NCBI GenBank assembly: GCA_003141525.1
Contig: PLML01000193.1
Coordinates: 719 to 64,718, forward strand
Direction: 5' to 3'
DNA from: Bacteroidales bacterium
GTDB taxonomy: Bacteria; Bacteroidota; Bacteroidia; Bacteroidales; VadinHA17
DNA: 64,000 bases
Within the stretch, counting starts at the first letter, position 1. Every line of letters starts with the position of its first letter. The notes beneath the pieces were generated by a model, which did no database searches, was not told the DNA's origin, and worked only from the letters and a program-made list of their open reading frames with translations. The position numbers were made by a program, and so were the translations under genes. Positions 13,882 through 58,827 of the stretch are shown here, piece after piece.

Positions 13882-16800
13882 CTACTCTTCTTCCACCACT
13901 AACAACCAACCTTTTTTAGACTCTATTGTAATAGATTCATCTCGAGCAAATGCCTTTTCAGGTTGAAAATTCTTAATTGCGGGTGCAGTAATCTTGATAT
14001 TGTCAGGATTAATACCTGCTCTGGCAAAATCTATTTTAAGTTTAACAGAAGTCGTTTCTTTTGCCCAGCTTGCTATACTAATGAGCATCTTTTTATTCTT
14101 CAAATAGGCTGTAGCCAATACATCTTTATTTGAAGTAGTGACAATAGGTTTTTCATCCCAATAACCTATCATCTTTGCATCAGCAATGCCAAAACTATCC
14201 CATGCCTTCCAAATTTCAGTGGGATCAGAGACTCCTTTATCAGTATAGGGCAAACGAGAAGTCATTCCATATATCATCCCCCTCCATGGGTTTTCACCTC
14301 CTGCTTGTGCCAACGGTAGCATATCGCCCATCAGTCCAAACGGAATTCCCGACACCTCTACCAGCCAGTTGGCTGGTGACATCTCATTATAATTATATAA
14401 TTCGCCAAACCATATTTTATCCAAGTACGGGAAAAATTCAGTATATTGCAAAACAGGAGGACCTCCATAAGTTCCTGCATGCAGATCAATAATGCAATTT
14501 GGTTTCACTTCATTCATTACTTTACGCATACGCATAATCATTTCTCTTCCATAAGCAGCTGCATCGAGATACAGCCCATCTATACCCATCTCCTTTACCA
14601 ACCACTTTAATCCTTCCACGTAATAATTATACCAACGTGTGTTGCCGGGAGATGTCATAATAGCAGCATCGGCTCCTTTTAGGTCACCGAGATACTGATA
14701 CCATTGGGGAATATAGTCATCTACCAAATGCTCTCTTAACCAAGGATATCCCCCACCAGGACCGCTAGCAAGAATCTCGTCACCAAGACTTCTCAATGCC
14801 CATATTTCGGTTGTAAAATTTGAAAGCTCTCTTACTGTGTAGTAAATTTTTACTTTCATCCCTTTGCTATGCCAACGGTCAACAAAGTCCTTCAATTCCT
14901 TTACGGCTATAAAGGGATAATTAATGTTCGGATTGTACTTATTAGCTTGATGCACATTGATAACTTTAACACCATTTGCCACAGCCTTTTCTGAAGGTTC
15001 AGGAGCAAGCGGATCATGAAAATAACGATCAGTAAACTGACTGTATGTATTGAGTTTTTTTACTGGTGTTATCACAAATGCACATTCAAACTTAATGCTT
15101 TCTCCTTTTTTTATAGTCCTAGGACCACTATATACTATTGCATCCCGCTGATTTTCAGAAGTTCTGATTCTGAATCCACCTTTACCATTATTGTCCCAAC
15201 TTGGAGGTGGAGCTGTATTGTAGAACATAAGCAATGGACCACTATACGGTGCCCCCCTGAGCTCGCAGCTTATACCACCATTTGTATTTCCAAGCCAAAA
15301 AGAATCATGTAATATGTCCCATTTACCTTCATGCGTTTCGGGGGTATCTGTCCCTGGAAGTCCCATTCCAATTATATAGCGCGCCATGTTTTTCTTAACG
15401 GGTATTACTAATTGGATATCGGTAACGTTTATATCCTTGTTTGCTTCAATATCAAATGTGTATTTTAGATATCCATCACACCATGCCTCAGAATGAGTCG
15501 TTAGCTTAATCAAATCATTTGTCTGCTCTATCTTTTTGGATAAAGAGCTGGCTGTCTTATTTGTTTCAATTATTTTATTTGTATTGAACTGTATATTGCC
15601 TTTCCCAGTTTTTATTTCAAATTGGATAGGTGCAGCCAAAATCTCTTTGCTCCATACTTTTATTGACGATGGTAGTCCACTTTCGGAAAATGAAAGTTCC
15701 TTCCCCGATAATACTACAACTTTTTCGTCTGGTACTTTTATGAACTCATAAGGAGGAATGGGATTGTCATCTATTCCTGCCGTTGAGTTCAGCCAACGTA
15801 AACGCGAATACCTCCAGGTCTCACCATCACCCCTGTCCACCAATATTTTATCCAATACTTTAATATTTACCTCTATGTATTTTTGTCCACAGTTTTTCGT
15901 ATTTATCGTCATTTTTCCGCTATATTTTCCCGGTGGAATATTTTGCGGTATATCTACCCCGATCCACAAGGTTTGAACTTTGTTTTTTTCAACATTTACC
16001 ATTTTAGAAAAAGGTTTGCCAAAGGGATCAATACCCCCTGTATTGAAACAAGTCATAGAAGTAACAGGTAAGGTATATTTACTACCTTTCAGAGATGTAA
16101 ATTCTACTCTTACATTTTCAATATCTTCCATTGCCCAGAGTCCTACCTGAAAAGCATAATATTCATTTTTATACGCCGTTCCCTCAAAGACATCGGTCAT
16201 TGGATTCAGGATCCATTTCTGCGGGATATTATCCAACATCCGGATGGGATATTTTCTGTCTTCCGGAAAGAGCAGAAATTTGCTGCCGCTAAGAGAGGAT
16301 TTCAGAACTTCTTTCTCCTTCTCAGTGGCAATCACCTCCATAGGATAAAAAGAATCGAATTCCGTGCGGGCCTGAATTTCGACAGGTTTTGCTTCAATAT
16401 AGTTAGATTTTAGATTTTTTTCGATATTAATTTTCTTTAACCAATGTTTATCCGGTGGAGGCTCTTGTGGCAGGTAATTTCTGCTGTACCCCCCCCATCC
16501 TCCTTGTAACTCATAAGGAAGATAATAAAAGTAATATTTACCAGCACTTACTGGTCCAAATAAAAGATTGCATCGCTCATTGTTTACATCTATGCGGTAT
16601 ATGTTTTGAACTGTATCGTTTGCCCGCGCATTTAAGATAATAAATCGATGTCTATCTACATCCTTGTCGTGACGTCGCCACTCCAGATTTAGATGGGCCA
16701 CCTCTCCATCCGATGGGATATTAATTACAGCACGGTGATTACCAATAGATGAAGGAAATTCTGTAGGCATCGAATCGGGTCTGATTTTTTTATGAACCCT

Positions 16801-16950
16801 ACCCATTATTTGCTCCCAAGGTTGGTTCGCAACTGAATAACGAAGTGTTTTTTTCTGATTACAAGCAAATAAAAAAATAAATATCACTCCTGCTAATAAA
16901 ATGTTTTTCATGATGTTATTTTGAATTATCGTTTTTCTATTCTTTAACAA
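13882..16950 (-). CDS. Exported ~1000-aa glycoside-hydrolase-like lipoprotein, paralog family 'D'
   Basis: 1022 aa. The likely true start is the Met at 16911, giving 'MKNILLAGVIFIFLFAC' with a lipobox Cys. That start removes the 14-nt overlap with the upstream gene. The N-terminal module is 'GNHRAVINIP...LEWRRHD...GKYYFYYLPYE'. Family motifs are 'SRLRWLNSTAGIDD', 'KIYYTVRELSNFTTEIWALRSLGDEI', 'DGLYLDAAAYGRE', 'IDLHAGT', 'IWFGELYNY' and 'SGIPFGL'. By eye it is about 70% identical to 44971-48006 in the N-terminal region. Confidence 0.6.
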   Translation of the reverse strand: MLKNRKTIIQNNIMKNILLAGVIFIFLFACNQKKTLRYSVANQPWEQIMGRVHKKIRPDSMPTEFPSSIGNHRAVINIPSDGEVAHLNLEWRRHDKDVDRHRFIILNARANDTVQNIYRIDVNNERCNLLFGPVSAGKYYFYYLPYELQGGWGGYSRNYLPQEPPPDKHWLKKINIEKNLKSNYIEAKPVEIQARTEFDSFYPMEVIATEKEKEVLKSSLSGSKFLLFPEDRKYPIRMLDNIPQKWILNPMTDVFEGTAYKNEYYAFQVGLWAMEDIENVRVEFTSLKGSKYTLPVTSMTCFNTGGIDPFGKPFSKMVNVEKNKVQTLWIGVDIPQNIPPGKYSGKMTINTKNCGQKYIEVNIKVLDKILVDRGDGETWRYSRLRWLNSTAGIDDNPIPPYEFIKVPDEKVVVLSGKELSFSESGLPSSIKVWSKEILAAPIQFEIKTGKGNIQFNTNKIIETNKTASSLSKKIEQTNDLIKLTTHSEAWCDGYLKYTFDIEANKDINVTDIQLVIPVKKNMARYIIGMGLPGTDTPETHEGKWDILHDSFWLGNTNGGISCELRGAPYSGPLLMFYNTAPPPSWDNNGKGGFRIRTSENQRDAIVYSGPRTIKKGESIKFECAFVITPVKKLNTYSQFTDRYFHDPLAPEPSEKAVANGVKVINVHQANKYNPNINYPFIAVKELKDFVDRWHSKGMKVKIYYTVRELSNFTTEIWALRSLGDEILASGPGGGYPWLREHLVDDYIPQWYQYLGDLKGADAAIMTSPGNTRWYNYYVEGLKWLVKEMGIDGLYLDAAAYGREMIMRMRKVMNEVKPNCIIDLHAGTYGGPPVLQYTEFFPYLDKIWFGELYNYNEMSPANWLVEVSGIPFGLMGDMLPLAQAGGENPWRGMIYGMTSRLPYTDKGVSDPTEIWKAWDSFGIADAKMIGYWDEKPIVTTSNKDVLATAYLKNKKMLISIASWAKETTSVKLKIDFARAGINPDNIKITAPAIKNFQPEKAFARDESITIESKKGWLLVVEEE

Positions 16951-19900
16951 TTAATATTAAACCTTTTGATGCCGGGATTATTAAATTATTTATTTCCACT
17001 TCTGATTGCGTTTGTAATTTGTCAATTTCAGGAGCCTCAATTTTTACTGTAGATGAATTTAATCCCAACTTATTCCAATCAATATCTAATTTTACAGATT
17101 GATCTTTATCTGCCCAATTCCCCATTGCTATCATTACTTCACCTTTTTTGATATATGTACTTGCTAATACATTTTTGTTATTAGTTTTAACAGCAATTTC
17201 AGGATCCCAATAACCCACATATCTTGAATCGGATATACCAAAATAGTCCCATAATTTCCATATGTTTGTGGGATCACAACCTTGCCATCCTAACCTGGAA
17301 GTCATTCCATAAACCATTCCTCGATAAACATTGCCACAACCAGCCAGCATTTCACCATATAGTCCAAAAGGAATTCCCGAAATTTCAATGAGCCAATAAT
17401 CCGGATTTGTATTATAATCAAACCCTTCACCAAACCATAGGCTATTTATATAGGGGAGCAACTCCATATTTTGATTCGCAGGACTATTCATACCGAAATA
17501 TTTATTAAATGTATTACCTGCATGAAAATCAAACAAGCCACCATCTGATGTTCTATCCATAGTCTTACGCAGCCTTTTCATAAATTCTCTATCGTAACCT
17601 ATGCCATCTAAATACAAACCACTCACTCCTAAATTTTTTATTAACCAACTAAATCCTTCTACATAATAATTGAGCCATCGGGATAATGTTTGTGTCCTTA
17701 TAGACATATCCCAATCTACACCTGTTCCGGACGGAAGAGGACTATGCCATTTCCCATCATATCTTGACCGAAGATGTTCATACAGCCACGGATGTCCCAT
17801 TGTACCCATCGCATTAAAGTCCAAATCAATATTTTCTTTAATAGAAAAATCAGGCATCTTAATAACATTATCACGGGTATAAACTTCATCACCGAGTGAT
17901 CGTAAAGCCCATAATTCAGGAAGATATACAGACAATTCTCTTACGGTATAATACAATTTTGTTTTAATATCATGACCTTTAGCATAGCTTATCACTTCTT
18001 TTAACAAATCCGGAGTAAGAAATGGATAATTAATAAAAGGATTGTATATATTACCCTGATGTAAAATCATAACTTTTGCTTTATTATTATTAATTACATC
18101 TTTAATGGCCGCCTCATCCGCATTAGAATCATGATAATAACGTTGTTCCCAATGCTTGTCATCCAAGGTCTTAAAAGGAGTAATAGCCAAACCAAAATTC
18201 AAAACCATCGTATCTCCGCTCATCATTGTCTTATTTCCTATATAAGCGGTTATCACAACTTCATTGCCAAATGATTTAATATTACATCCTCCTTTACCAT
18301 CATTACTCCAATCTCTGTAAGGTCCCGTTTTCTTTAAGTCAAACATTGGCCAGTCAGGAGTCAAGTTTTTTAATTTCAATTGCATTCCTGCATTAACTGC
18401 ACCCATCCAAACCATATTGCTTGTAATATTTGTATCCCATTTCCAATCTAAGTTTAGATTTTCAGGTGTTCGTCCTCCTTGTCTTCCCATTCCCATTAAA
18501 TATGTTGCTGCAGATTTTTTGTAGGGAAGAATAAGTTTTACATCGTCTAATGTTACGTTCTTTTTAGCAACTATTTTTGTTTCATAATTAACATAACCAT
18601 CACATTCCATCTTGGCTTTAATATAAACAGCTATATTTGCAGAATATAATGAGGTTTCCCAGGCAACAGTACCACTGGTCCTTAAGGTAATTACCGGGTC
18701 TTTTGCCTTCAAATCAATTACTTTATCTCCTTGCAATACATTAAGCCGTATTTCTTCAGATATTATCTCTTTTTCAGGTCCATTAACATCATGATTACTC
18801 GCTGAAAAAGAACTTGTTATCCTAGCTGGAAGTCCATATTTATTAAATGTTAATTTTCTTCCAAATATGGATACCGTATTTTTCTCTAACTTTACAGGAG
18901 TAAACGGTGAAAAAACCTCATTATCCAATCCCATATCTGAATCTAGCCAATTTAAACGAGACTGATTTTGGGGTGTATTATAACCTCTATTTTCCGCTAT
19001 TCTTTCACCAACTTTTATCGTTACATCTATATTATATTCTTTTGTGCCTTGTGCTGATACAATTACCTTACCCTTATAAATTCCTGCAGGTTGATTCTCT
19101 TTTATATCTGTTATAATCCACATTGCCTGTACTTCACCTTTTGGCACATTCACATTTTTAGTAAAGCTTTTACCTAAATGATCACGGCCTCCTGTATTAA
19201 TACATTTAAATGCAGTTGAGGGTATAGAAGACCCCTGGTCTGTCTTTAAATTAGAAAAGAATATTTGCACTCCTCTTAACTCCTTAAATGGGGCAAAAAC
19301 CCCTAATTGCCATACATAAATTTCATTCTTAAGCGCTGTCCCTTCAAAGGGATAATTCGCTCCTTTTTTATACCACCTGTAAGGAATTGTTTCAAACATT
19401 CGAATAGGAAATTTTCTATCTTCCGGAAATATCAAAAACTCTTTATCCCTGTTTTTTTCCAAAATCTCTGATAACTCTTTCTGAGTAACAGGTATTTCCA
19501 TTGGATAAAAACTATGAAAATCATTTTTACTCTCAAATCGAATAGTCTTTGCTATTCCTTGGATAATACTGTTTGCAATGCTGTTTTTCCAGTTAACATC
19601 AAATGTCTCTGCCGGTTTTACATAGTCAGGGTAAGGAAACCACCACATTCGACTGTCATTAACCTTTCCAGGCATGTAATACAAATAATATTTCCCTTCT
19701 CCCGAAGTTGGTTCAAATACGATTTCTGCATAATCTTTATTTAACTCTGTACTATAAATATTGTTTACTCGTTGGTCAGTAAATGCATCTATTAATATTA
19801 GAGTTTTTTCTTTAACATTATCCAATCTACGCCATGGAACAACTAAGCTAACTGCATTTGCTGCCTTTTCGACATAAATAACAGCCCTGTGGTTCCCAAG

Positions 19901-20071
19901 CCCTTGTGAGTTCCACTGACCTGTTCCATAAGTAATGTTCTGAATGTCCTGGGCATAAATTTGGACATTAAATAATACCAAAATGAAAAAAAATGTATTT
20001 TTTTTCATAAAATTTTTAATTTTTCTCATAATTGACTCCTTGCTTTTAATTAATTTGTCTTTCATGTTCAT
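16937..20071 (-). CDS. Exported ~1000-aa glycoside-hydrolase-like protein, paralog family 'D'
   Basis: 1044 aa as listed in the track. The probable real start is the Met at 20008 ('MKKNTFFFILVLFNVQIYAQ', SPI signal). Motifs are 'GNHRAVIYV...VPWRRLD...GKYYLYYMP', 'SRLNWLDSDMGLDN', 'KLYYTVRELSVYLPELWALRSLGDEV', 'SGLYLDGIGYDRE', 'FDFHAGN', 'LWFGEGFDY' and 'SGIPFGL'. Confidence 0.6.
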   Translation of the reverse strand: MNMKDKLIKSKESIMRKIKNFMKKNTFFFILVLFNVQIYAQDIQNITYGTGQWNSQGLGNHRAVIYVEKAANAVSLVVPWRRLDNVKEKTLILIDAFTDQRVNNIYSTELNKDYAEIVFEPTSGEGKYYLYYMPGKVNDSRMWWFPYPDYVKPAETFDVNWKNSIANSIIQGIAKTIRFESKNDFHSFYPMEIPVTQKELSEILEKNRDKEFLIFPEDRKFPIRMFETIPYRWYKKGANYPFEGTALKNEIYVWQLGVFAPFKELRGVQIFFSNLKTDQGSSIPSTAFKCINTGGRDHLGKSFTKNVNVPKGEVQAMWIITDIKENQPAGIYKGKVIVSAQGTKEYNIDVTIKVGERIAENRGYNTPQNQSRLNWLDSDMGLDNEVFSPFTPVKLEKNTVSIFGRKLTFNKYGLPARITSSFSASNHDVNGPEKEIISEEIRLNVLQGDKVIDLKAKDPVITLRTSGTVAWETSLYSANIAVYIKAKMECDGYVNYETKIVAKKNVTLDDVKLILPYKKSAATYLMGMGRQGGRTPENLNLDWKWDTNITSNMVWMGAVNAGMQLKLKNLTPDWPMFDLKKTGPYRDWSNDGKGGCNIKSFGNEVVITAYIGNKTMMSGDTMVLNFGLAITPFKTLDDKHWEQRYYHDSNADEAAIKDVINNNKAKVMILHQGNIYNPFINYPFLTPDLLKEVISYAKGHDIKTKLYYTVRELSVYLPELWALRSLGDEVYTRDNVIKMPDFSIKENIDLDFNAMGTMGHPWLYEHLRSRYDGKWHSPLPSGTGVDWDMSIRTQTLSRWLNYYVEGFSWLIKNLGVSGLYLDGIGYDREFMKRLRKTMDRTSDGGLFDFHAGNTFNKYFGMNSPANQNMELLPYINSLWFGEGFDYNTNPDYWLIEISGIPFGLYGEMLAGCGNVYRGMVYGMTSRLGWQGCDPTNIWKLWDYFGISDSRYVGYWDPEIAVKTNNKNVLASTYIKKGEVMIAMGNWADKDQSVKLDIDWNKLGLNSSTVKIEAPEIDKLQTQSEVEINNLIIPASKGLILIVKE

Positions 20072-42606: not shown

Positions 42607-43824
42607 TTAGCTATTTTCTTTTTGAATTAATCTTATTTTATGCCCTTTCTTTGCATAAAACAATAAGTATAGATAAATGGGGACACAAATCAAATAAGCC
42701 ATTTGCATCGGATTACTACCAATATGTAAATCTGAAAGCAATCCAAACAAAAGCGGGATAACAGCTCCTCCGGCAATTCCCATTACTAATAAGGCAGCTC
42801 CATCATTTGTAAATTCTCCTAAGTCAGCTATTGCCAAGGGCCAAATAGTGGGCCAAATCAGTGAATTTCCCAAGCCTAACAATGCTACAAAATAAATAGC
42901 ATAGGTAAGAGGTAATAGACAAATAAAGGCGGAACTTATTATACCTATACAAGCACATATCTGTAAAGCAGCTGTTTGGGTCAGTTTTTTAGGAATAAAC
43001 AAAACTCCACATATATATCCTATTATCGTTGCAATAACTGTATAAGAACCATATTGCTCAGGATTTTCAAGCCCAATATTTGAAGCAAAATCAACTATAG
43101 AAGCCAAGGCAATTACTTCAACTCCTGAAAATAGGAATAGACCAGCAACTCCCAATAAAAGATGTGGAAATTGAAAAATGCTTGTTTTTAAGTTTGTTCC
43201 GTGTATGGAAGACGAATTTTCTTCATTGGCTATTTTGATTTCAGGAAGAGGTAAAAAGGGAGATAAAACACCAATTATAACAAATATTACTGTCATCAAC
43301 ATAAATGGGAAAGTTACATCAGACAAACTAACATTATTTAAATTAAGAAATAAACTAAGAAAAATTGGAGCTGCTGCCCATGCCAGTTTATTAAGTATTC
43401 CCATGATACTAATGCGTTTTGCAGCACTTTCTATTGGGCCTATAATAGTAATATATGGATTTACCGCAGCTTGCAATAAAGTATTTCCAGCGCCACTTAT
43501 AAATGAAGCTAATAAAAACAAGGGAAAACTTTGATATCTGGCTGATGGAATAAATAAAAAGAAGCCAACTGCAAAAATGAGGAAAGAAATCATCATGCTT
43601 CTTTTATAGCCTATTTTTTTAATAATTTTTCCTGAAGGATAACCACATACAACAAAAGCTGTATAAGCAGATGCAAGGATCAAGTAGGCTTGTGCAGAAG
43701 AAATACTAAATGCCTTTTTGAAAAATGGAATCAAAAAAGAATTAATTCCTAATGCAAAACCTATGAAAAAAAATTGGACGCCAATAATTAAAATCGGTAT
43801 TGCAAGATTATTTTTAGCAGTCAT
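42607..43824 (-). CDS. MFS sugar transporter (FucP / glucose-galactose GluP type)
   Basis: 405 aa with about 12 TM segments. 'FFFIGFALGINSFLIPFFKKAF', 'GKIIKKIGYKRSM' and 'GAGNTLLQAAVNPYITIIGPIESAAKR' match the conserved blocks of FucP/GluP-family permeases as I recall them. Confidence 0.75.
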   Translation of the reverse strand: MTAKNNLAIPILIIGVQFFFIGFALGINSFLIPFFKKAFSISSAQAYLILASAYTAFVVCGYPSGKIIKKIGYKRSMMISFLIFAVGFFLFIPSARYQSFPLFLLASFISGAGNTLLQAAVNPYITIIGPIESAAKRISIMGILNKLAWAAAPIFLSLFLNLNNVSLSDVTFPFMLMTVIFVIIGVLSPFLPLPEIKIANEENSSSIHGTNLKTSIFQFPHLLLGVAGLFLFSGVEVIALASIVDFASNIGLENPEQYGSYTVIATIIGYICGVLFIPKKLTQTAALQICACIGIISSAFICLLPLTYAIYFVALLGLGNSLIWPTIWPLAIADLGEFTNDGAALLVMGIAGGAVIPLLFGLLSDLHIGSNPMQMAYLICVPIYLYLLFYAKKGHKIRLIQKENS

Positions 43825-43835
43825 TTTGGGATATC

Positions 43836-44915
43836 TTAATAATTTCTTGATTGAGTAATTAAACCTAAACGATATAATTCTTCATGAATGAACAGACAAT
43901 TATTGATGTCATATTCATTTTCCAAGTGATAAGCGATCTTCAAAGGTCCATTATTATTTTCTTCCAAAATTCTATACAACCATTCTTTTACTTTTTCTTT
44001 TGAACTACCTTTCATCAAAATTTCAACAGCAGGAAATACATTGATTTCTATATTATTTCCTAGAATTTCTCTGATTTTTTTTACAGAAGTACCCGAACCA
44101 GTATCAATAACTCCCAGGTTTCTGATTTTAGCAAATGACTCTATTAAATAATCCGATTTGCCACAGCTATGAAGACGAATTTTACCTAATTTATCACCTA
44201 ATGTACTTATGTAAGGTACTATAAATTCTTCATACAATTCACGCGATAGCATTGTCCCTGAACATTCCCCGATATGAACGGATGTGACAGGCAAATTTGC
44301 TAATTTTGAAAAATATTTAATAATAGCAATATATACATCAGCAATCCATTGATTAATCGAATGTGCCAATTGTGGATTAACAAGTAGAAGAGTAATTATA
44401 TTTTCTCCCACTAGTTTGAGCGATGTAGTAATAATTCCATGAATTGTAGCTCTTCCCGAAAGATCCCAGAAAAAAGGAGGAATAACTGTCAAATCTGGTC
44501 GTGATTTTTGAATTTTAACAACTTCTTTGGTTAAATCTTTTATGAATTGGTGATTAAGCAATTTGTCAACTGGTGGTAATTCAAATGCATCTTTAATGTC
44601 TTTTAAAGGATATCCTGTCACATCAGAATCTTTATCTGCAAAGAATGAAAATTTAGCACCTAACATGACTGCTATTATCATATTCGGTTGTATAGCACCT
44701 ACCTGCACCAAATTTTCATTATAGAACTCTGCCTGAACTAAGTTATCTTCCATATTGTAAAGAGCATAGTTTGGAAATTTCTCTCGAAGAAATTTATTAA
44801 TTTCTCTATCTCTTTCAAGGCGAAATAATGGATTTAAATAATACTGACTATCAAATGTAAAACTCCCAGCTTGATGTAGCCATCCTTTTGAAACACTAGC
44901 TTGTATCTTTATCAT
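43836..44915 (-). CDS. Cytoplasmic uroporphyrinogen-decarboxylase (URO-D)-superfamily-like protein; function unknown
   Basis: 359 aa with no signal peptide. The N-terminal 'KGWLHQAGSF' resembles the URO-D signature 'PxWxMRQAGR'. The size and the later 'RLHSCGKSDYLIE' block fit the URO-D/MtaA TIM-barrel family. The stop is 11 nt from the MFS start. Assignment is tentative. Confidence 0.4.
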   Translation of the reverse strand: MIKIQASVSKGWLHQAGSFTFDSQYYLNPLFRLERDREINKFLREKFPNYALYNMEDNLVQAEFYNENLVQVGAIQPNMIIAVMLGAKFSFFADKDSDVTGYPLKDIKDAFELPPVDKLLNHQFIKDLTKEVVKIQKSRPDLTVIPPFFWDLSGRATIHGIITTSLKLVGENIITLLLVNPQLAHSINQWIADVYIAIIKYFSKLANLPVTSVHIGECSGTMLSRELYEEFIVPYISTLGDKLGKIRLHSCGKSDYLIESFAKIRNLGVIDTGSGTSVKKIREILGNNIEINVFPAVEILMKGSSKEKVKEWLYRILEENNNGPLKIAYHLENEYDINNCLFIHEELYRLGLITQSRNY

Positions 44916-51130: not shown

Positions 51131-53386
51131 TTATTTCATGCCTTCAGGCCTAAAAATCAGAACCTTTGGAGATAAAGCCTTGAGGATACATTCAACAAAT
51201 AATGTCGAATCCTTCCATACAAATTTTGTATCTGAAACAGGCAGCAATTTTGTTCCTGGATTAACTTTTAATTCCTTAGCAGGTATTTGGCACGAAACAA
51301 CTGTGTCTTTGTCATCAACATTAAAAAGATTCAGTACACCGCCCGATCTTTCAGGTAAAGTGTGCAGATGTGCATATTCATTTAAGCCAACAAATTTGCC
51401 ATTCACATAATATCGTTCTAGTGACCTGTAAAGTTTCATTGCATCTTGCTGAACCTTAACTACCTTTGGGTAAGGATGGGTATTTCCGATACCCAAATGC
51501 CGGCAAGTTGAGGCGAACCACCATAATCCAAGCGCATTCTCATTATCCCGCCCTAGATTGATGTGCATATACAGAGGAATATCATAAGCGAGATTGTAAT
51601 AGTATAAACACAATGCGAGTTTATTTTTCACGTATTCCGCCGGACTTTCAGACATCATCTCATAGGCCCATATTTCGTCAAATCCTCCACCGTGACGATA
51701 GCCAATATATACAGGACAATATGGAAATAACGTCATAAAGTCGTGCATTTCGATTTTTATATCAGGATTAATCTTGTGGACCTCCTGTGCCAGCCATTTG
51801 CATGCCATAAGATGATCGTCTCGTGTATAAGGAATTGGGTGACCATGATCCGGATCATAGCAAGGTCCTGTGTACCATGAACCGTCAAACATCATGAACT
51901 GAATTCCGCCTTTTGCTAACACTTTTAATCGCTCCGCTTTAGTTTGCAGATATGGCTTTGAACCACCGCAAAGACTGTTGTATGAATTTTCATCATGACG
52001 TTTTCCATTTTCATCCATGCGGAATGTCGATTTGGGATAGCTTTCCGTCTCAGTCCAACCTGCCAATGGTACATGAATACCCACCTTCAAACCGTATTCG
52101 TTACTTAACCTTTTTGTAAACTCTTTCAGAGGACCCAAAAGCTTCTCATTCCAGATGGCAGTACCAAACTCTGTATCCCAGCCTGGATCCATATAAAAAG
52201 TTTCGCAGTGGTATGCAAGCGCCTTTTTAATTTGGTCATTTATAAAGTCCATACAATAATGCATATTTGGCCATCTGCCCTTGTTTTCAAAATGCTCGTT
52301 CCAATGGAGATAGCCCAGGTAGTTTTCAGGCAAACCGTTCCCCCATCCATTCATAGTTGTTTTAAAAAGGGCAAATGCCTCTTTCCAATCTCCATCAAAA
52401 AGTTGATAACGAGTCACCCCGAATTTATATTTTTCTCCTGCCTGTATTAATCCAGGACTTGGATCCTGATGGTAACGTTTTGATCCGCCGAACAGCAGAT
52501 CTTCGACATATTCCGATCTTGCTCCAGGTATCATTGGTCCCTGCCGCGTCACATCATAGCGTAACACACTATATTCGAGCATAGAAGGCGCATATTTCAT
52601 TACTAATAGCCCAGAGCCATTGTTAAGCAAAGCCCAGGCTTCACTTCCAAGATCGTTACTCAGGGGTTGGAGTCTCCACCATCCGGTACCCGGTTCAAAA
52701 TCTGCACCTCCTTTACTTTTCAGGTTTGGCAATGTTTTGAAATCGTAGTCCTGAACGGTTTGAGGATCCAATATCTGACGTCGCCATGGAATAGCAGCAG
52801 CTCTGAATTTTGTCATATCAATTAACGGAACAGTAGCAGCAATTGTACGTTTTCCAGGACCAAAATCCCATTCTGTTATTCGTATAGGGTGAGTGCTATT
52901 ATTAACTACTGTGATTGTTTCATCCAGCCAATTTCCGTCAGCAGAGAGTTTATAGTCAACGATAACTTTACATTCACCCAATTTCCCGGTAACACAGATT
53001 ATCCAACCATCAGAACCCAGATTGTTAAATGTTGTTTCAGCATCTTTCAGCATCGTAGCTTTAGTGAACTGGGCCGGTGCAGGATCATCGCCTGTAGAGT
53101 ATTCCAAAATCCAACTATATTCGGTATCCACCCAGGCAATTTTATTCGAAGTATCCGTAAAGCTGCACAGTCCTGGTATTTTTGACGTTGAGAAACGCAG
53201 TTCTGTTTTCCCTGCCCGTAAATACCATGAATCATCTTTTTGTACAAGTGCTTCAGCACTATTTTGAGCTATCATTATTTCTGGGGCAGAAAACATTACC
53301 ATTACCAAAAAGACTATTGTTATAATAGTTGATATCAGGGTTTTGATACCAAGGTTTCTTTTTGTTTTTCTGCTATTTACTTTCAT
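51131..53386 (-). CDS. Exported ~750-aa protein, divergent member of paralog family 'X'
   Basis: 751 aa. Motifs are 'TFYMDPGWDTEFGTA', 'FMMFDGSWYTGPCYD', 'HGHPIPY', 'KIEMHDF' and 'LWWFASTCRHLGIGN'. The N-terminal leader 'MKVNSRKTKRNLGIKT...' is homologous to those of the next two upstream genes. Confidence 0.55.
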   Translation of the reverse strand: MKVNSRKTKRNLGIKTLISTIITIVFLVMVMFSAPEIMIAQNSAEALVQKDDSWYLRAGKTELRFSTSKIPGLCSFTDTSNKIAWVDTEYSWILEYSTGDDPAPAQFTKATMLKDAETTFNNLGSDGWIICVTGKLGECKVIVDYKLSADGNWLDETITVVNNSTHPIRITEWDFGPGKRTIAATVPLIDMTKFRAAAIPWRRQILDPQTVQDYDFKTLPNLKSKGGADFEPGTGWWRLQPLSNDLGSEAWALLNNGSGLLVMKYAPSMLEYSVLRYDVTRQGPMIPGARSEYVEDLLFGGSKRYHQDPSPGLIQAGEKYKFGVTRYQLFDGDWKEAFALFKTTMNGWGNGLPENYLGYLHWNEHFENKGRWPNMHYCMDFINDQIKKALAYHCETFYMDPGWDTEFGTAIWNEKLLGPLKEFTKRLSNEYGLKVGIHVPLAGWTETESYPKSTFRMDENGKRHDENSYNSLCGGSKPYLQTKAERLKVLAKGGIQFMMFDGSWYTGPCYDPDHGHPIPYTRDDHLMACKWLAQEVHKINPDIKIEMHDFMTLFPYCPVYIGYRHGGGFDEIWAYEMMSESPAEYVKNKLALCLYYYNLAYDIPLYMHINLGRDNENALGLWWFASTCRHLGIGNTHPYPKVVKVQQDAMKLYRSLERYYVNGKFVGLNEYAHLHTLPERSGGVLNLFNVDDKDTVVSCQIPAKELKVNPGTKLLPVSDTKFVWKDSTLFVECILKALSPKVLIFRPEGMK

Positions 53387-53474
53387 ATTCTTATATAAAT
53401 ATCTAAGGTAAGATATTTGAACACTTCATGCTGATCAACAATATTATTGTCGCCAGGTTGAAAGCATTTTCCGG

Positions 53475-55355
53475 TTAACGGGCATTTTTAGCATCGGGAT
53501 CATCAATTCGTGGCACATGTATCGCAATCGAGGTGTTTTCAGAGTGATATATACGGGTCAATTCTTCGAATGCTGCCTTGAGTGTGGGGCCTTCGAGCCA
53601 GCCGTTGGTGCTGACTAATTCCTTATCAATAATGGCACGAAGGTAAAGTATCCGCCACCGCCAGCTTGCCCGTGCATGAGGTGTCAACTGCGCGTCTGCC
53701 TGTTGAATGAGCCTGAACGCTTCCCCAGAAGTCTGTTCGAGTTGGAGGCGTTCGGCCTGGGACAATGGCAACCGATTGGTATTTTGAAACTCAATCCGGC
53801 TGCCACCGAGAATAACACCGAATAAGAATCCGCTACCCGAGTTTATGTTTTTTTCAACCACGAGTTTGCGCATATGGTTGTGTTCGAGTAATTCAATGGC
53901 TTTCGAAACTGAATCCACAACGTTGGGCGAGTATTCATACGCGATATACTCTTGAACCGTTTCCTTTGTCGAACGGTCGGGATCCCAATATAACTGGCTG
54001 CAAACCGTCTTATTGATGTCTTCGTAGATGCCTTCTGAATAGGGAAAACCACCGGACATCTTCTTTTGGGTTTGATCCCACAGGTATTGGAACCGTTGAG
54101 GAAGTGGATTGGCGCCAAAGCCGCCCCAAGGATATTGGCCAACCATACTGATCTCGGGAAAGTTAACCATCGACAGCCCTCCGGGTACACCAACTTTTAG
54201 TGGATAGGCAGGGAATTCTTCATGGGCATCGATCATCAGGTAGTCAACCCAGCTATTATCCTTTGCCAGGTACTCCGACAGTCCCGCATACTCACCATCC
54301 TTCTTAAGCGCGATGGTAATTCTACCATTCTCATCATTTCCACCGGCATCGAACCACCATGTGCTAAGAATAACCTTGGCTTTGGGGTATTTTGCCCGGA
54401 GCACAGTGGTAAATTCCTGACACATCTTAGGATAACCGCGCGACCCCCAGGGAGCACAGTCCTTACAGTTACACCCACCTTCGTCATATGGCCAGAACAC
54501 AACTTGATCCAATCCGGGTTCGGCAAACTTGTCGATCAACTTGTCCCAGTCTTTCAACATGAGTTTCATTGCCGCCGGTTTGCTTGGGCAAAGTATAGTG
54601 CCCCAACACCTTGGGCTGTGGGTGGCTAAAAGTTCCTTCGGTGTGGAAGTAAATCCAAAATTCCCGGTGATTACGCCAACCCGCATCCCCACTGCCTTAG
54701 CATCGCACATAATGAGATTCAGTTTTCGAAGCGATTCCCGCGCCTTCGGATCATCAAATCCCTGCAACCACTGATTGGGAAAATGGACAACCAATGCATT
54801 CGTACCCCACAGGGCCAGGCTTTCGATATAACAAAGCCTCTCTTCATCAGATGCCGCTTCGTAGAAGTTATTGAAATGCGTGGCAAAGTAAATACCGCGT
54901 ATCGTTCCTTTTGGCACGGATGTACCGCGCCAAACGCCTGCCGTGAAGCCTCCCTGATCATAACGTGAAGTATGAAGGAACTTGCCTACGCCATAAAGCA
55001 ACCCGCGTTCGTCATTCCCGGTAATCCGAACTGACCTGTTCGGGCCATTAGCGATATTATAACCTTCCGTTCCGATACCCGGCTTAACGACCAGCTTAAC
55101 CGTTAGCTTCGCGTTGCCGGTTGTAATAACTTTGGCGCCGCAACGTTCCGTAATTTCGCGTCCGAGAATTTCGGAGGCGCGTTTGGCTATTGAGCCGGCA
55201 CCGGAGGGTAATACTACACGAACTGATTGTACGGGTCCATCTGCCCTGATGCAGGCGGTAAGTGTTACTATGACTGACACGGTCATGATTAAAATGAGAA
55301 ACTTCAGGATTTTGATACCAAAACTTTTTTCAGTTTTATGGTTTGTTACTTTCAT
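53475..55355 (-). CDS. Putative glycoside hydrolase with a GH20b/GH67/GH115-type N-terminal domain and a TIM-barrel-like core; lipoprotein
   Basis: 626 aa with the lipobox 'VTLTAC'. 'GYNIANGPNRSVRITGNDERGLLYGVGKFLH' is the characteristic motif of the N-terminal alpha/beta domain found in GH20, GH67, GH84, GH89 and GH115 enzymes. It is followed by 'IRGIYFATHFNNF'. A 'WPYDEGGCNCKDCAPW' CxCxxC cluster is present. The gene is GC-rich. Confidence 0.45.
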   Translation of the reverse strand: MKVTNHKTEKSFGIKILKFLILIMTVSVIVTLTACIRADGPVQSVRVVLPSGAGSIAKRASEILGREITERCGAKVITTGNAKLTVKLVVKPGIGTEGYNIANGPNRSVRITGNDERGLLYGVGKFLHTSRYDQGGFTAGVWRGTSVPKGTIRGIYFATHFNNFYEAASDEERLCYIESLALWGTNALVVHFPNQWLQGFDDPKARESLRKLNLIMCDAKAVGMRVGVITGNFGFTSTPKELLATHSPRCWGTILCPSKPAAMKLMLKDWDKLIDKFAEPGLDQVVFWPYDEGGCNCKDCAPWGSRGYPKMCQEFTTVLRAKYPKAKVILSTWWFDAGGNDENGRITIALKKDGEYAGLSEYLAKDNSWVDYLMIDAHEEFPAYPLKVGVPGGLSMVNFPEISMVGQYPWGGFGANPLPQRFQYLWDQTQKKMSGGFPYSEGIYEDINKTVCSQLYWDPDRSTKETVQEYIAYEYSPNVVDSVSKAIELLEHNHMRKLVVEKNINSGSGFLFGVILGGSRIEFQNTNRLPLSQAERLQLEQTSGEAFRLIQQADAQLTPHARASWRWRILYLRAIIDKELVSTNGWLEGPTLKAAFEELTRIYHSENTSIAIHVPRIDDPDAKNAR

Positions 55356-55388
55356 ATGATTCCTTTTTTATTTTTTAAGGTCGTATGG

Positions 55389-55437
55389 AACCCACATGAT
55401 AATCATTTTTGTATGTGATATAGGTATCATGTGGGTT
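55389..55437. repeat. Perfect 13-bp inverted repeat in the intergenic gap between the 524-aa and 626-aa genes
   Basis: AACCCACATGATA (55389-55401) and TATCATGTGGGTT (55425-55437) are separated by 23 nt. No U-run follows on either strand. Confidence 0.7.
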
Positions 55438-55474
55438 TCATGTTCTTATATTTAATTAATTCTTACTTATAAGC

Positions 55475-57049
55475 CTATTCCAACATTTCATAAATCAACT
55501 TAACGGTTTCATCAACCAACATTTTTCCTCCTTCAGGACCTACAATAGTAACTTTTGCACTATAACCTCCTCCTTTGATAGCCCTTTCTGTGGGCAGGTA
55601 ATCGCCATAATTGCCGCTGCTTAATTGAACTAGGAAGGTTTGCTTTGCCTTGCTTCTTCCCATAATCCTGAAACCAAAATCTGTGTAAAGCTCAAATGGG
55701 TTTGTAGCAAATGCTATATCTCCAAGTCGGATGACATGAAGCTCAACCCTGAATAATGGATTTTTATCTTGGTTTTTATATTTTTCAACCAAAGCTTCTT
55801 CTTCCTTCACGATCCCGAAATCGGAATTCTTATTATCCCATGGCCCGAAATCTTTTACTTTTTCATTATCCCTAATCTCATTAAGGAACCTGTTCCAGGC
55901 GGTGTTCGGAAAGTTTGGGTCCTTAGGTTCACGTGAATGTATTTCATTTGCAATTTTAAGCGCTTCCTCATATTCTTTTTCGGTTACCCTCCGGGTTGGA
56001 AGATCAATATCTTTGACTAAATGGTTAAAGACTACTTTTGTCTGAATGGATTCCAAGGCATGAGGATAAGCAACGTCAATGGTATGGATCAGCCGTTCGC
56101 CAATTTCAACAATGCCGGGAAGATTCCACATATTGGGTTCTCCGGATTTATACCCGTGTGGAAGGTCTCGGGGAGAAAGATCACCGGCCGCACCGCATTG
56201 TGGTAAAACATAAACATCATCAGAAAATCTTTTCCCGATTTGCTTTCTTACTTCTCCCCAGTAATCAGATGAAACGTAATATTTTGCCTCGGTTACCTGT
56301 GCCGGGCATGATACGTTCATTACAATCCCTGTTAGTTTTTTATCCATGTCCCAGCAAAAAAGCATGCCAACTCCTGGATTGTTTCCTCCTTCCATCCCGA
56401 TAAAGTCTTCCCGGTCGGTTAAACCGTACATTTCCGTTGTTCCGTTGGAATATTGTACCCTCCGATTGTGACCAACCACGGCATAACCTATTTCGCTGCT
56501 GATCCCTGCCGGTTTACGGTTATTCCAGGCACTGATTATGGCTTCGCCTACCCGTTTCAGAATCAAATTCCGGTATTCTTTTAAATCAGGATCGGGAGCA
56601 GAATGGGTATGAGTTGCGTTCAGAAAAAGTTTCTTTTTATCAAAATCTGGTATCTGCTTTTTAACGATGGCTCTCAGTGAATCCTGCATATACCTGCCGA
56701 TATTCAACAAATCCATGGAAACCATTATCGCCTGCTCTTTGGAGCCATCAGCATTTGTTGACTCTATAGCAAATGCCGTAACCTTTAGCGGGCTCTGTAC
56801 AAATTTTGAAATACGTTTATAATACTGGCCACATAATGAAACCGGGCCTTCCGGAGTAATATCACCCATGGCCCAACCAATATGCAGGCCGCCATTTGTT
56901 AATCTTTTTGAACTGAACGATTGCACCCGCCCGGAGGCTCTGGTGCAGGCAGCAAGCGTTACCATGACAAATACGATTATAGTCAAAATGATTGACATCA
57001 CGGTCATTATGCCGAAACTTCTTTTTGTTTTTCTGTTAATTGCTTTCAT
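55475..57049 (-). CDS. Neutral/alkaline-ceramidase-like (N-terminal domain) hydrolase; lipoprotein
   Basis: 524 aa with the lipobox 'VTLAAC'. 'LHIGWAMGDITPEGPVSLCGQY', 'PLKVTAFAIES....AIMVSMDL' and 'LFLNATHTHSAPDP' align by eye with the 'GxxKxDITG', 'ARAFVIE....VxxDL' and 'ATHTHSGPGG' blocks of bacterial neutral ceramidase. Confidence 0.5.
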   Translation of the reverse strand: MKAINRKTKRSFGIMTVMSIILTIIVFVMVTLAACTRASGRVQSFSSKRLTNGGLHIGWAMGDITPEGPVSLCGQYYKRISKFVQSPLKVTAFAIESTNADGSKEQAIMVSMDLLNIGRYMQDSLRAIVKKQIPDFDKKKLFLNATHTHSAPDPDLKEYRNLILKRVGEAIISAWNNRKPAGISSEIGYAVVGHNRRVQYSNGTTEMYGLTDREDFIGMEGGNNPGVGMLFCWDMDKKLTGIVMNVSCPAQVTEAKYYVSSDYWGEVRKQIGKRFSDDVYVLPQCGAAGDLSPRDLPHGYKSGEPNMWNLPGIVEIGERLIHTIDVAYPHALESIQTKVVFNHLVKDIDLPTRRVTEKEYEEALKIANEIHSREPKDPNFPNTAWNRFLNEIRDNEKVKDFGPWDNKNSDFGIVKEEEALVEKYKNQDKNPLFRVELHVIRLGDIAFATNPFELYTDFGFRIMGRSKAKQTFLVQLSSGNYGDYLPTERAIKGGGYSAKVTIVGPEGGKMLVDETVKLIYEMLE

Positions 57050-58790: not shown

Positions 58791-58827
58791 AAAAAGTCTG
58801 ATAATATTCCATATCAGACTTTTTTTA
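58791..58827 (-). terminator. Bidirectional rho-independent-type terminator after the SusC/SusD/lipoprotein unit
   Basis: AGTCTGAT (58795-58802) pairs with ATCAGACT (58813-58820) across a 10-nt loop. The hairpin is flanked by A5 on the left and T8 on the right. On the minus strand it starts 27 nt after the stop of the 148-aa gene and is followed by TTTTTATGATTTTTA. Confidence 0.6.

Follow-up and report, generated by a model that had tools for sequence, protein, structure and literature searches.

One long signal-peptide leader on three adjacent, otherwise unrelated enzymes of a Bacteroidales polysaccharide utilization locus, probably copied between gene 5′ ends

The stretch of DNA from an uncultured Bacteroidales bacterium analysed here (contig PLML01000193.1, positions 719 to 64,718; 64,000 nucleotides, hereafter the window) is filled nearly completely by a polysaccharide utilization locus (PUL) of ~55 kb on the minus strand (7979-63849). 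Its genes run in the order SusC, SusD, a DUF5018-related gene, a GH29 fucosidase, g524, g626, g751 and a DUF5107/TPR gene, which is followed by four GH123-like, four GH2-like and one GH31 gene among others. The same PUL, with identical proteins, is present on metagenome contigs of several samples, among them ERZ27254253, JGI 3300037086, 3300038461 and 3300037225, and SRR7151665, and is preceded there by an extracytoplasmic function (ECF) sigma factor and a FecR anti-sigma factor. The subject of this work is the long N-terminal leader of g751, g626 and g524, three consecutive open reading frames (ORFs) enclosed in this locus (Table 1). The ORFs, their starts (53386, 55355 and 57049) and their N-termini proved to be exactly as the original prediction had described them, and we reproduced both its counts of identity, 24 of 44 residues between g626 and g524 and 37 of the first 48 nt between g751 and g524.

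Table 1. Positions in the window of the three genes, their leaders and the putative processing sites
Feature	Position	Strand	Remarks
g751	51131-53386	minus	751-aa GH36-like glycosidase of an uncharacterised family, with the shared leader
g626	53475-55355	minus	626-aa enzyme, GH20b/GH67N-like N-domain and TIM barrel
g524	55475-57049	minus	524-aa neutral-ceramidase-like protein
g751 leader, codons 1-34 (MKVNSRKTKRNLGIKTLISTIITIVFLVMVMFSA)	53285-53386	minus	Part homologous to the other two leaders; reference copy of the repeat
g626 leader and first mature residues, codons 1-44 (MKVTNHKTEKSFGIKILKFLILIMTVSVIVTLTA-C-IRADGPVQS)	55224-55355	minus	Repeat copy
g524 leader, codons 1-44 (MKAINRKTKRSFGIMTVMSIILTIIVFVMVTLAA-C-TRASGRVQS)	56918-57049	minus	Repeat copy; includes the g626-type 'GRVQS'
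g626 lipobox cysteine Cys35 (L-T-A-C)	55251-55253	minus	PROSITE-style lipobox regular expression
g524 lipobox cysteine Cys35 (L-A-A-C)	56945-56947	minus	PROSITE-style lipobox regular expression
g751 Ala40-Gln41, putative signal peptidase I site (MIA↓QN)	53264-53269	minus	Read from the sequence

The three leaders are copies of a single 102-nt direct repeat (53285-53386, 55254-55355 and 56948-57049), each of which ends exactly at the ATG of its gene. Over these first 102 nt the ungapped identity is 75% for g751/g524, 69% for g626/g524 and 64% for g751/g626. Among 16 other exported genes of the window the 120 possible pairs have a mean identity of 34% (sd 4.6%, maximum 45%), and the leaders thus lie 6-9 standard deviations above the background of signal-peptide-coding 5′ ends, which bears out the claim that a homologous leader stands on non-homologous proteins. 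Indeed, pairwise BLASTP aligned the N-termini alone (E = 3e-10 for g626/g524, and 2e-7 and 0.002 for the other two pairs). The likeness of g751 to the other two leaders ends at codon 34, whereas that of g626 and g524 runs on to codon 44 (132 nt), with 19 of 30 nt (63%) identical over codons 35-44. When the 95-nt upstream flanks were included in the alignment, no likeness was found before the ATG in any copy, and there was none among the three genes downstream of the repeat.

The copies are in frame, and in all three pairs the proportion of nonsynonymous differences (pN, 0.22-0.34) is lower than that of synonymous differences (pS, 0.38-0.53), corresponding to dN/dS of about 0.3-0.7 at a dS of 0.5-0.9. 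Because pN is below pS and dS is this large, the comparison points to copies that are old and translated rather than recent. Conservation is lowest at third codon positions (18-22 of 34, compared with 25-29 of 34 at first positions). The leaders are AT-rich (0.29-0.35 GC) and the gene bodies are not; g626, at 0.489, has the highest GC of the window, and g524 and g751 lie slightly above the window average. Insertion of a mobile element or a repeat element where the genes start was considered and rejected, as the repeat has no flanking repeats, is in frame and is bounded by the ATG. Rfam searched over the 5′ ends gave no match at E<=1, and no family of Pfam or NCBIfam matched the leader. A degenerate DNA pattern for the n-region (ATGAARNNNNNNARYNNNAARACNNNNARRNNNYTNGGNATH) matched all three window copies, with zero matches expected by chance. 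The same pattern gave six matches in genome_contigs (185,579 species-representative genomes) and seven in metagenome_contigs, two collections that do not contain this organism's locus, and all of them were judged to be chance matches by their stop codons, their lack of a hydrophobic core or their unrelated taxa.

Each of the three proteins begins with the features of a Sec signal. The leaders have an n-region of 10-18 residues with a charge of +4 to +6 and an uncharged hydrophobic h-region of 18-26 residues; in g751 the n-region is 15 residues long with a charge of +6, and the h-region 20 residues. AlphaFold2 models of g626 and g751 have a helix across the hydrophobic core, which in g626 spans residues 11-36 and is followed by the first strand at 44-48. 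No other signal backbone in the window is as long, and the lipobox cysteine lies at residue 35, compared with residues 16-19 in other window lipoproteins; the exception, an ORF with the cysteine at residue 30, has a listed TTG start that is probably too far upstream. The leader had been described as unique in length and charge: its backbones are indeed the longest, but a few other window ORFs also have long N-termini, none of them homologous to the leader. Two GH123-like ORFs on the minus strand (13882-16950 and 16937-20071) carry long listed N-terminal extensions (LLKNRKTIIQNNIMKNILL from a TTG start, and MNMKDKLIKSKESIMRKIKNFMKKNTFFF), and their true starts are probably internal Met codons. 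The 'NRKT' within LLKNRKTIIQNNIMKNILL was rejected as leader homology, being a 4-residue coincidence with nucleotide identity at background.

As to processing, g626 and g524 match the Sec/signal peptidase II (SPII) lipobox ([LVI][ASTVI][GAS]-C, with the cysteine within about the first 35 residues), Cys35 lying at the upper limit of this PROSITE-style rule; g751 has no cysteine, does not match, and was treated as of signal peptidase I (SPI) or anchor type. The 34-residue backbone is at the top of the range of functional Bacteroides thetaiotaomicron signal backbones, which have 16-34 residues (PMC11554821). The lipoprotein export signal (LES) is an acidic motif at +2 to +6 after the cysteine, K-(D/E)2, Q-A-(D/E)2 or S-D-D-D-D-like (PMC5080379). 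It is absent at these positions of g626 (IRADG) and g524 (TRASG), both with Arg at +3 and no more than one acidic residue, and because of this absence we infer that both are periplasm-facing lipoproteins. In g751 the sequence PEIMIA↓QNS, which lies beyond the shared repeat, fits the Q-rule of Bacteroidetes, by which signal peptidase I cleavage exposes an N-terminal Gln (PMC5837995): it has a small residue at -1 and Gln at +1, with an unusual Met at -3. Many other window proteins have A, S or G followed by Q at the corresponding place. A proline (Pro35) after 'FSA' in g751 argues against cleavage there. Signal peptidase I probably cleaves g751 at A40↓Q41, unless the protein stays anchored via an uncleaved helix.

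TKRSFGI, together with the long n-region, is superficially like the twin-arginine (Tat) motif S/T-R-R-x-F-L-K. A Tat signal was rejected, as the three versions TKRNLGI, TEKSFGI and TKRSFGI have KR, EK and KR and never RR, and neither TAT_signal nor TIGR01409 matched the isolated leaders even at E<=10. Canonical Tat RR motifs occur in two other window proteins (DRRDFLK and KRRHFL), the first of them the GH31 of the PUL.

The enzyme bodies behind the leaders differ. Pfam gave only a weak Ceramidase_alk (ceramidase-N) match for g524, which has no sequence match in the PDB, and only weak GH20b/GH67N matches for g626, none of them above the gathering score; g626 has no NCBIfam and no PDB sequence match. 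Its AlphaFold2 model (pLDDT 89.9) matches by Foldseek the folds of GH67, GH115, GH138, GH20 and GH84. For g751 there is no Pfam, NCBIfam or PDB sequence match, and the best PDB folds for its model (pLDDT 89.5) are GH36 alpha-galactosidases and a galactosaminidase, the top match being the blood-group-A galactosaminidase of Flavonifractor plautii (8x1b). g751 and g626 are candidates for new glycoside hydrolase families. In profile-profile comparison of the mature parts, g524 was unrelated to g626 and g751, while for g626 and g751 the match was weak (43% probability, about 117 columns), as would fit a predicted TIM barrel in both within different architectures.

Where the leader comes from is suggested by the g626 family. 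Among 120 g626 homologues, three from the closer end of the range, with 58-62% identity (P0123, P0128 and P0158), begin MMRTNQQNKRIPGI, MKRTNRPIKRITGI and MKITNKKSKKSFTV, and their n-regions match the window motif MK.TN..xK+..GI. Over 102 nt the leaders of P0123 and P0128 share 42-52% of their nucleotides with those of the window, and most of these values exceed the highest background value, 45%. In a neighbour-joining tree the three homologues and g626 are placed in a single subclade, where members with short leaders stand among them, and on the 113-kb contig of P0123 every neighbouring glycosidase has an ordinary short signal. In the g626 family the mature protein begins with the consensus A-x-P-V-x-S-V-R, represented in g626 itself by GPVQS. 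From these sequences, the leader is probably native to g626, which would also be its donor. Since the three window leaders are closer to one another than to the leader of any orthologue, the spread would have occurred within this lineage, and, at the dS given above, not recently.

A control is provided by another organism, in which a locus (L025, 3468-6905) has the order SusC-SusD-[g524 homologue]-[g626 homologue], the pair standing in the same order as here, with 64% identity for each of the two proteins. The leaders of this pair are ordinary, 21-22 residues long, and 45% identical to each other in nucleotide sequence, which is background level. Conservation of the pair directly behind SusC and SusD suggests a joint role for the ceramidase-like protein and the GH20b-like enzyme. 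The shared leader is thus peculiar to this genome and no requirement of these enzymes. Long-standing adjacency of g524 and g626 may have given the chance for recombination of 5′ ends.

g524 is best explained as a recipient. Its 12 closest relatives (72-76% identity) have no signal at all, and in a neighbour-joining tree g524 is sister to their clade. In one of these leaderless relatives, P0008, encoded on a 6.6-Mb contig, stop codons lie directly upstream of the start, and the surrounding AraC, MFS, PfkB, SIS and TIM genes make up a context that is cytoplasmic and catabolic. The nearest relative that does bear a leader, P0007, has an unrelated SPII leader (29-37 of 102 nt), and the window leader was carried by none of the 120 g524 homologues. 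Homology within the g524 family begins near residue 47-50; the GRVQS of g524 sits where the mature start of the g626 family lies, and unrelated sequence separates it from the g524 domain. A [VAL]QS tripeptide precedes the domain in 4 of the 120 homologues, at other positions and never directly after the lipobox cysteine (two in the n-region, one in the h-region and one in what is probably a mis-called N-terminus). Because g524 carries the residues GRVQS of the g626-family mature start, there is evidence that its N-terminus up to codon 44 may have been copied from a g626-type gene.

The N-termini of the g524 family as a whole occur in three states: no signal (46 of 121), a short SPII signal, or a long n-region with SPII ('MKTxKKST...ILKS'). 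The last were tried as relatives of the window leader and rejected, with E of 0.09-0.5 in a search of a 390-sequence set by a hidden Markov model of the leader. The leaderless P0008 and the SPII-bearing P0007 are both encoded in AraC-MFS-unknown-PfkB sugar-catabolism clusters, and because the two share this cluster type, localisation seems to flip often within the g524 family in one genomic context.

The family of the other putative recipient, g751, is small, with 318 representatives at E<=0.001 among 1.84 billion, and its homology begins at residues 41-42. Six of the eight top hits inspected are leaderless, one has a Tat signal and one (P0241) a different long leader; none of 150 g751 homologues carried the window leader.

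Several further features of the locus were seen. The g524-g626 spacer contains a near-perfect 17-nt inverted repeat (55385-55441), the only occurrence in the window, which gives a strong transcript hairpin: the minimum free energy of the 119-nt spacer is -25.1 kcal/mol, compared with -10.3 for shuffles (z = -5.3). It was rejected as a canonical terminator, for it has no U-tail; it may act in processing or stabilisation, or as an attenuator. Between the DUF5018-related and GH29 fucosidase genes a 13-bp hairpin with A and T runs on both sides (58791-58824) resembles a bidirectional terminator and may divide the PUL into transcription units. A scan of the region for sigma-70 promoters and terminators, a method ill-suited to Bacteroidota, gave counts at the level of shuffles. 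The PUL also encodes an FG-GAP/ASPIC protein and, in its middle (42607-44915), a pair of genes for an MFS transporter and a URO-D-like protein with notably low GC (0.31-0.33).

The reading that we favour, and regard as probable, is that a single long Sec signal, at home in the g626 family, came to stand on two neighbours through duplication or recombination of 5′ ends. Some 100-130 nt of a g626-type gene, counted from its ATG, would have been copied onto the non-homologous g524 and g751, with junctions that map to codons 35-41 in g751 and 45-49 in g524. The basic n-region and the hydrophobic core would send the pre-proteins to the Sec translocon, and the lipoboxes of g626 (LTA-C) and g524 (LAA-C) would lead to lipidation and cleavage by signal peptidase II at Cys35. 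In the absence of an LES, g626 and g524 would stay in the envelope as periplasm-facing lipoproteins, and g751, having no cysteine, would be released by signal peptidase I or held by its uncleaved helix. Enzyme bodies that were presumably cytoplasmic, as the leaderless nearest relatives of g524 and most relatives of g751 suggest, would in this way have been moved into the cell envelope to serve the PUL. The comparisons show that the leaders are homologous, where the homology ends, how the leader is distributed over the retrieved homologues and that the nearest g524 relatives are leaderless. For the direction of transfer, the recombination, the processing and the localisation we rely on sequence features and on knowledge of the Sec and lipoprotein pathways. 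The original prediction had offered three explanations; leader exchange by recombination is the one to be favoured, its lean towards co-acquisition is not borne out, and nothing that we found supports a dedicated sorting signal.

Several points weigh against copying from a g626-type gene. The evidence for the direction of transfer comes from 10 codons and three orthologues, the trees are crude neighbour-joining ones that carry no support values, and the distribution of the leader was assessed in the 64-kb window and the retrieved homologues. Parsimony on the g524 tree does not separate gain of a leader in g524 from its loss in the leaderless clade, so that the safe claim for g524 is replacement or acquisition of a leader, not necessarily a move from cytoplasm to periplasm. 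Finally, among g626 orthologues the n-region has been kept to about the same degree as the enzyme, which hints at a function beyond that of a generic signal, something that copying does not need.

This conservation is one argument for the view that the enzymes share a destination or a complex and that the extended basic leader, much like the extended signal peptides ESPR and YSIRK in its logic, is a signal dedicated to sorting, anchoring or pre-translocation and read by a specific factor. In P0158 the n-region motif is kept at 9 of 15 residues, the level of the enzyme body (58% overall); the three copies have pN below pS, and no other leader in the window is as long or as basic. We nevertheless consider this view unlikely: the syntenic g524-g626 pair of the other organism runs on ordinary unrelated leaders, the leader is interleaved with short leaders inside its own g626 subclade, and the other roughly 18 exported proteins of the PUL do without it. 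Moreover, no Pfam or NCBIfam model describes it, and the n-region pattern found chance matches alone in the species-representative genomes, a collection outside which this locus lies. A related and slightly more doubtful proposal gives the n-region MK-x-[TN]-[NS]-x-K-[TS]-x-[KR]-x-[FL]-G-I a function of its own in a Bacteroidota lineage, as a motif for targeting or retention rather than a passive stretch of the Sec signal. If it were functional, it could be a pre-translocation or membrane-microdomain signal that gathers periplasmic glycan-degrading lipoproteins, and it would have been copied onto g524 and g751 since the pathway needs the three enzymes co-located.

Acquisition of the three genes together from a foreign lineage that uses the leader as its usual signal peptide is improbable. 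The high GC of g626, with g524 and g751 slightly above average, and the many g626 homologues at about 50% identity from Planctomycetota and Verrucomicrobiota could be taken in its favour, and GC-rich composition had been put forward as a sign of such an origin. The sign did not survive comparison with the locus: heterogeneity of GC is general in this PUL, where other genes too reach 0.42-0.46, and the leaders are AT-rich whereas the bodies are not. Furthermore, the nearest relatives of the three bodies differ from one another and have different N-termini or none, and the three leaders are mutually closest, which fits spread inside this genome.

We give still less credence to an element acting at the mRNA level, in which the A-rich first ~48 nt would be a shared translation-initiation enhancer or a small-RNA target and the likeness of the peptides a by-product. 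Bacteroidota depend on unstructured A-rich start regions, and in the leaders identity does peak in the first 48 nt (69-77%), which are strongly A-rich. The homology, however, extends in frame across the hydrophobic core, up to 102-132 nt, the least conserved positions are the third codon positions and pN is below pS, which speaks for constraint on the protein, and no Rfam match and no conservation upstream of the ATG were found.

Chance or compositional convergence of signal peptides, which are compositionally biased, or leaders left untranslated below true starts further downstream (g751 has Mets at M29, M31 and M38, and most of its family is leaderless) is hardly credible, given identities 6-9 sd above background, three n-region matches where none is expected, a repeat that begins exactly on the first start of each ORF, and downstream Mets that would leave no usable signal in g626 and g751 and, at Met15 of g524, a core with no charged n-region.

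By kind, then, the leader is an ordinary Sec/SPII signal peptide (SPI-type in g751) of unusual length and history. With the lipoprotein signals of Bacteroidota it shares, in g626 and g524, the charged n-region, the hydrophobic core and the lipobox cysteine, and the residues after this cysteine decide between surface and periplasm in the same way. It differs from them in its 34-residue backbone, in a 10-18-residue n-region with a conserved motif, in having no LES, and in that one leader stands on non-homologous neighbours, the third copy (g751) having lost, or never had, the cysteine. A conserved motif within an unusually long n-region before a Sec signal is also known from the ESPR of autotransporters and the YSIRK-G/S signals of Gram-positive surface proteins. 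These have no sequence likeness to the leader and belong to other phyla; the three N-termini gave no Pfam match to them and noise alone in NCBIfam, and there is no evidence of the leader motif outside one enzyme family and two neighbours.

The closest parallel is found in the OspE/OspF/Elp lipoproteins of Borrelia burgdorferi (Erp, 'upstream homology box'), in which homologous leaders stand on unrelated mature parts, a pattern attributed to 5′-end recombination. There, however, the shared block spans the upstream promoter region and the genes lie on multicopy plasmids, whereas here the homology starts exactly at the ATG and the copies are old (dS 0.5-0.9) and belong to three adjacent chromosomal genes for glycan degradation. 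Surveys show signal-peptide gains and losses among orthologues, but the source of a gained signal peptide is rarely identifiable. In Enterobacterales, for example, orthologous families mix members with and without signal peptides, and gain can proceed via an acquired N-terminal segment (PMC5952966); in contrast to that survey, a plausible donor, the adjacent g626-type gene, can here be named and the junctions mapped.

None of the three enzyme bodies (GH36-like, GH67/115/20-like and ceramidase-like) comes from a characterised family, and the 35-residue leader, a natural portable export tag found on three architectures, could be tried in secretion toolkits for Bacteroidota. If the favoured reading is true, an enzyme acquired a new cellular address when the 5′ end of the gene next to it was copied, with a donor that can be named and junctions placed within a few codons, and the locus would show a PUL recruiting mostly cytoplasmic enzyme families into the cell envelope.

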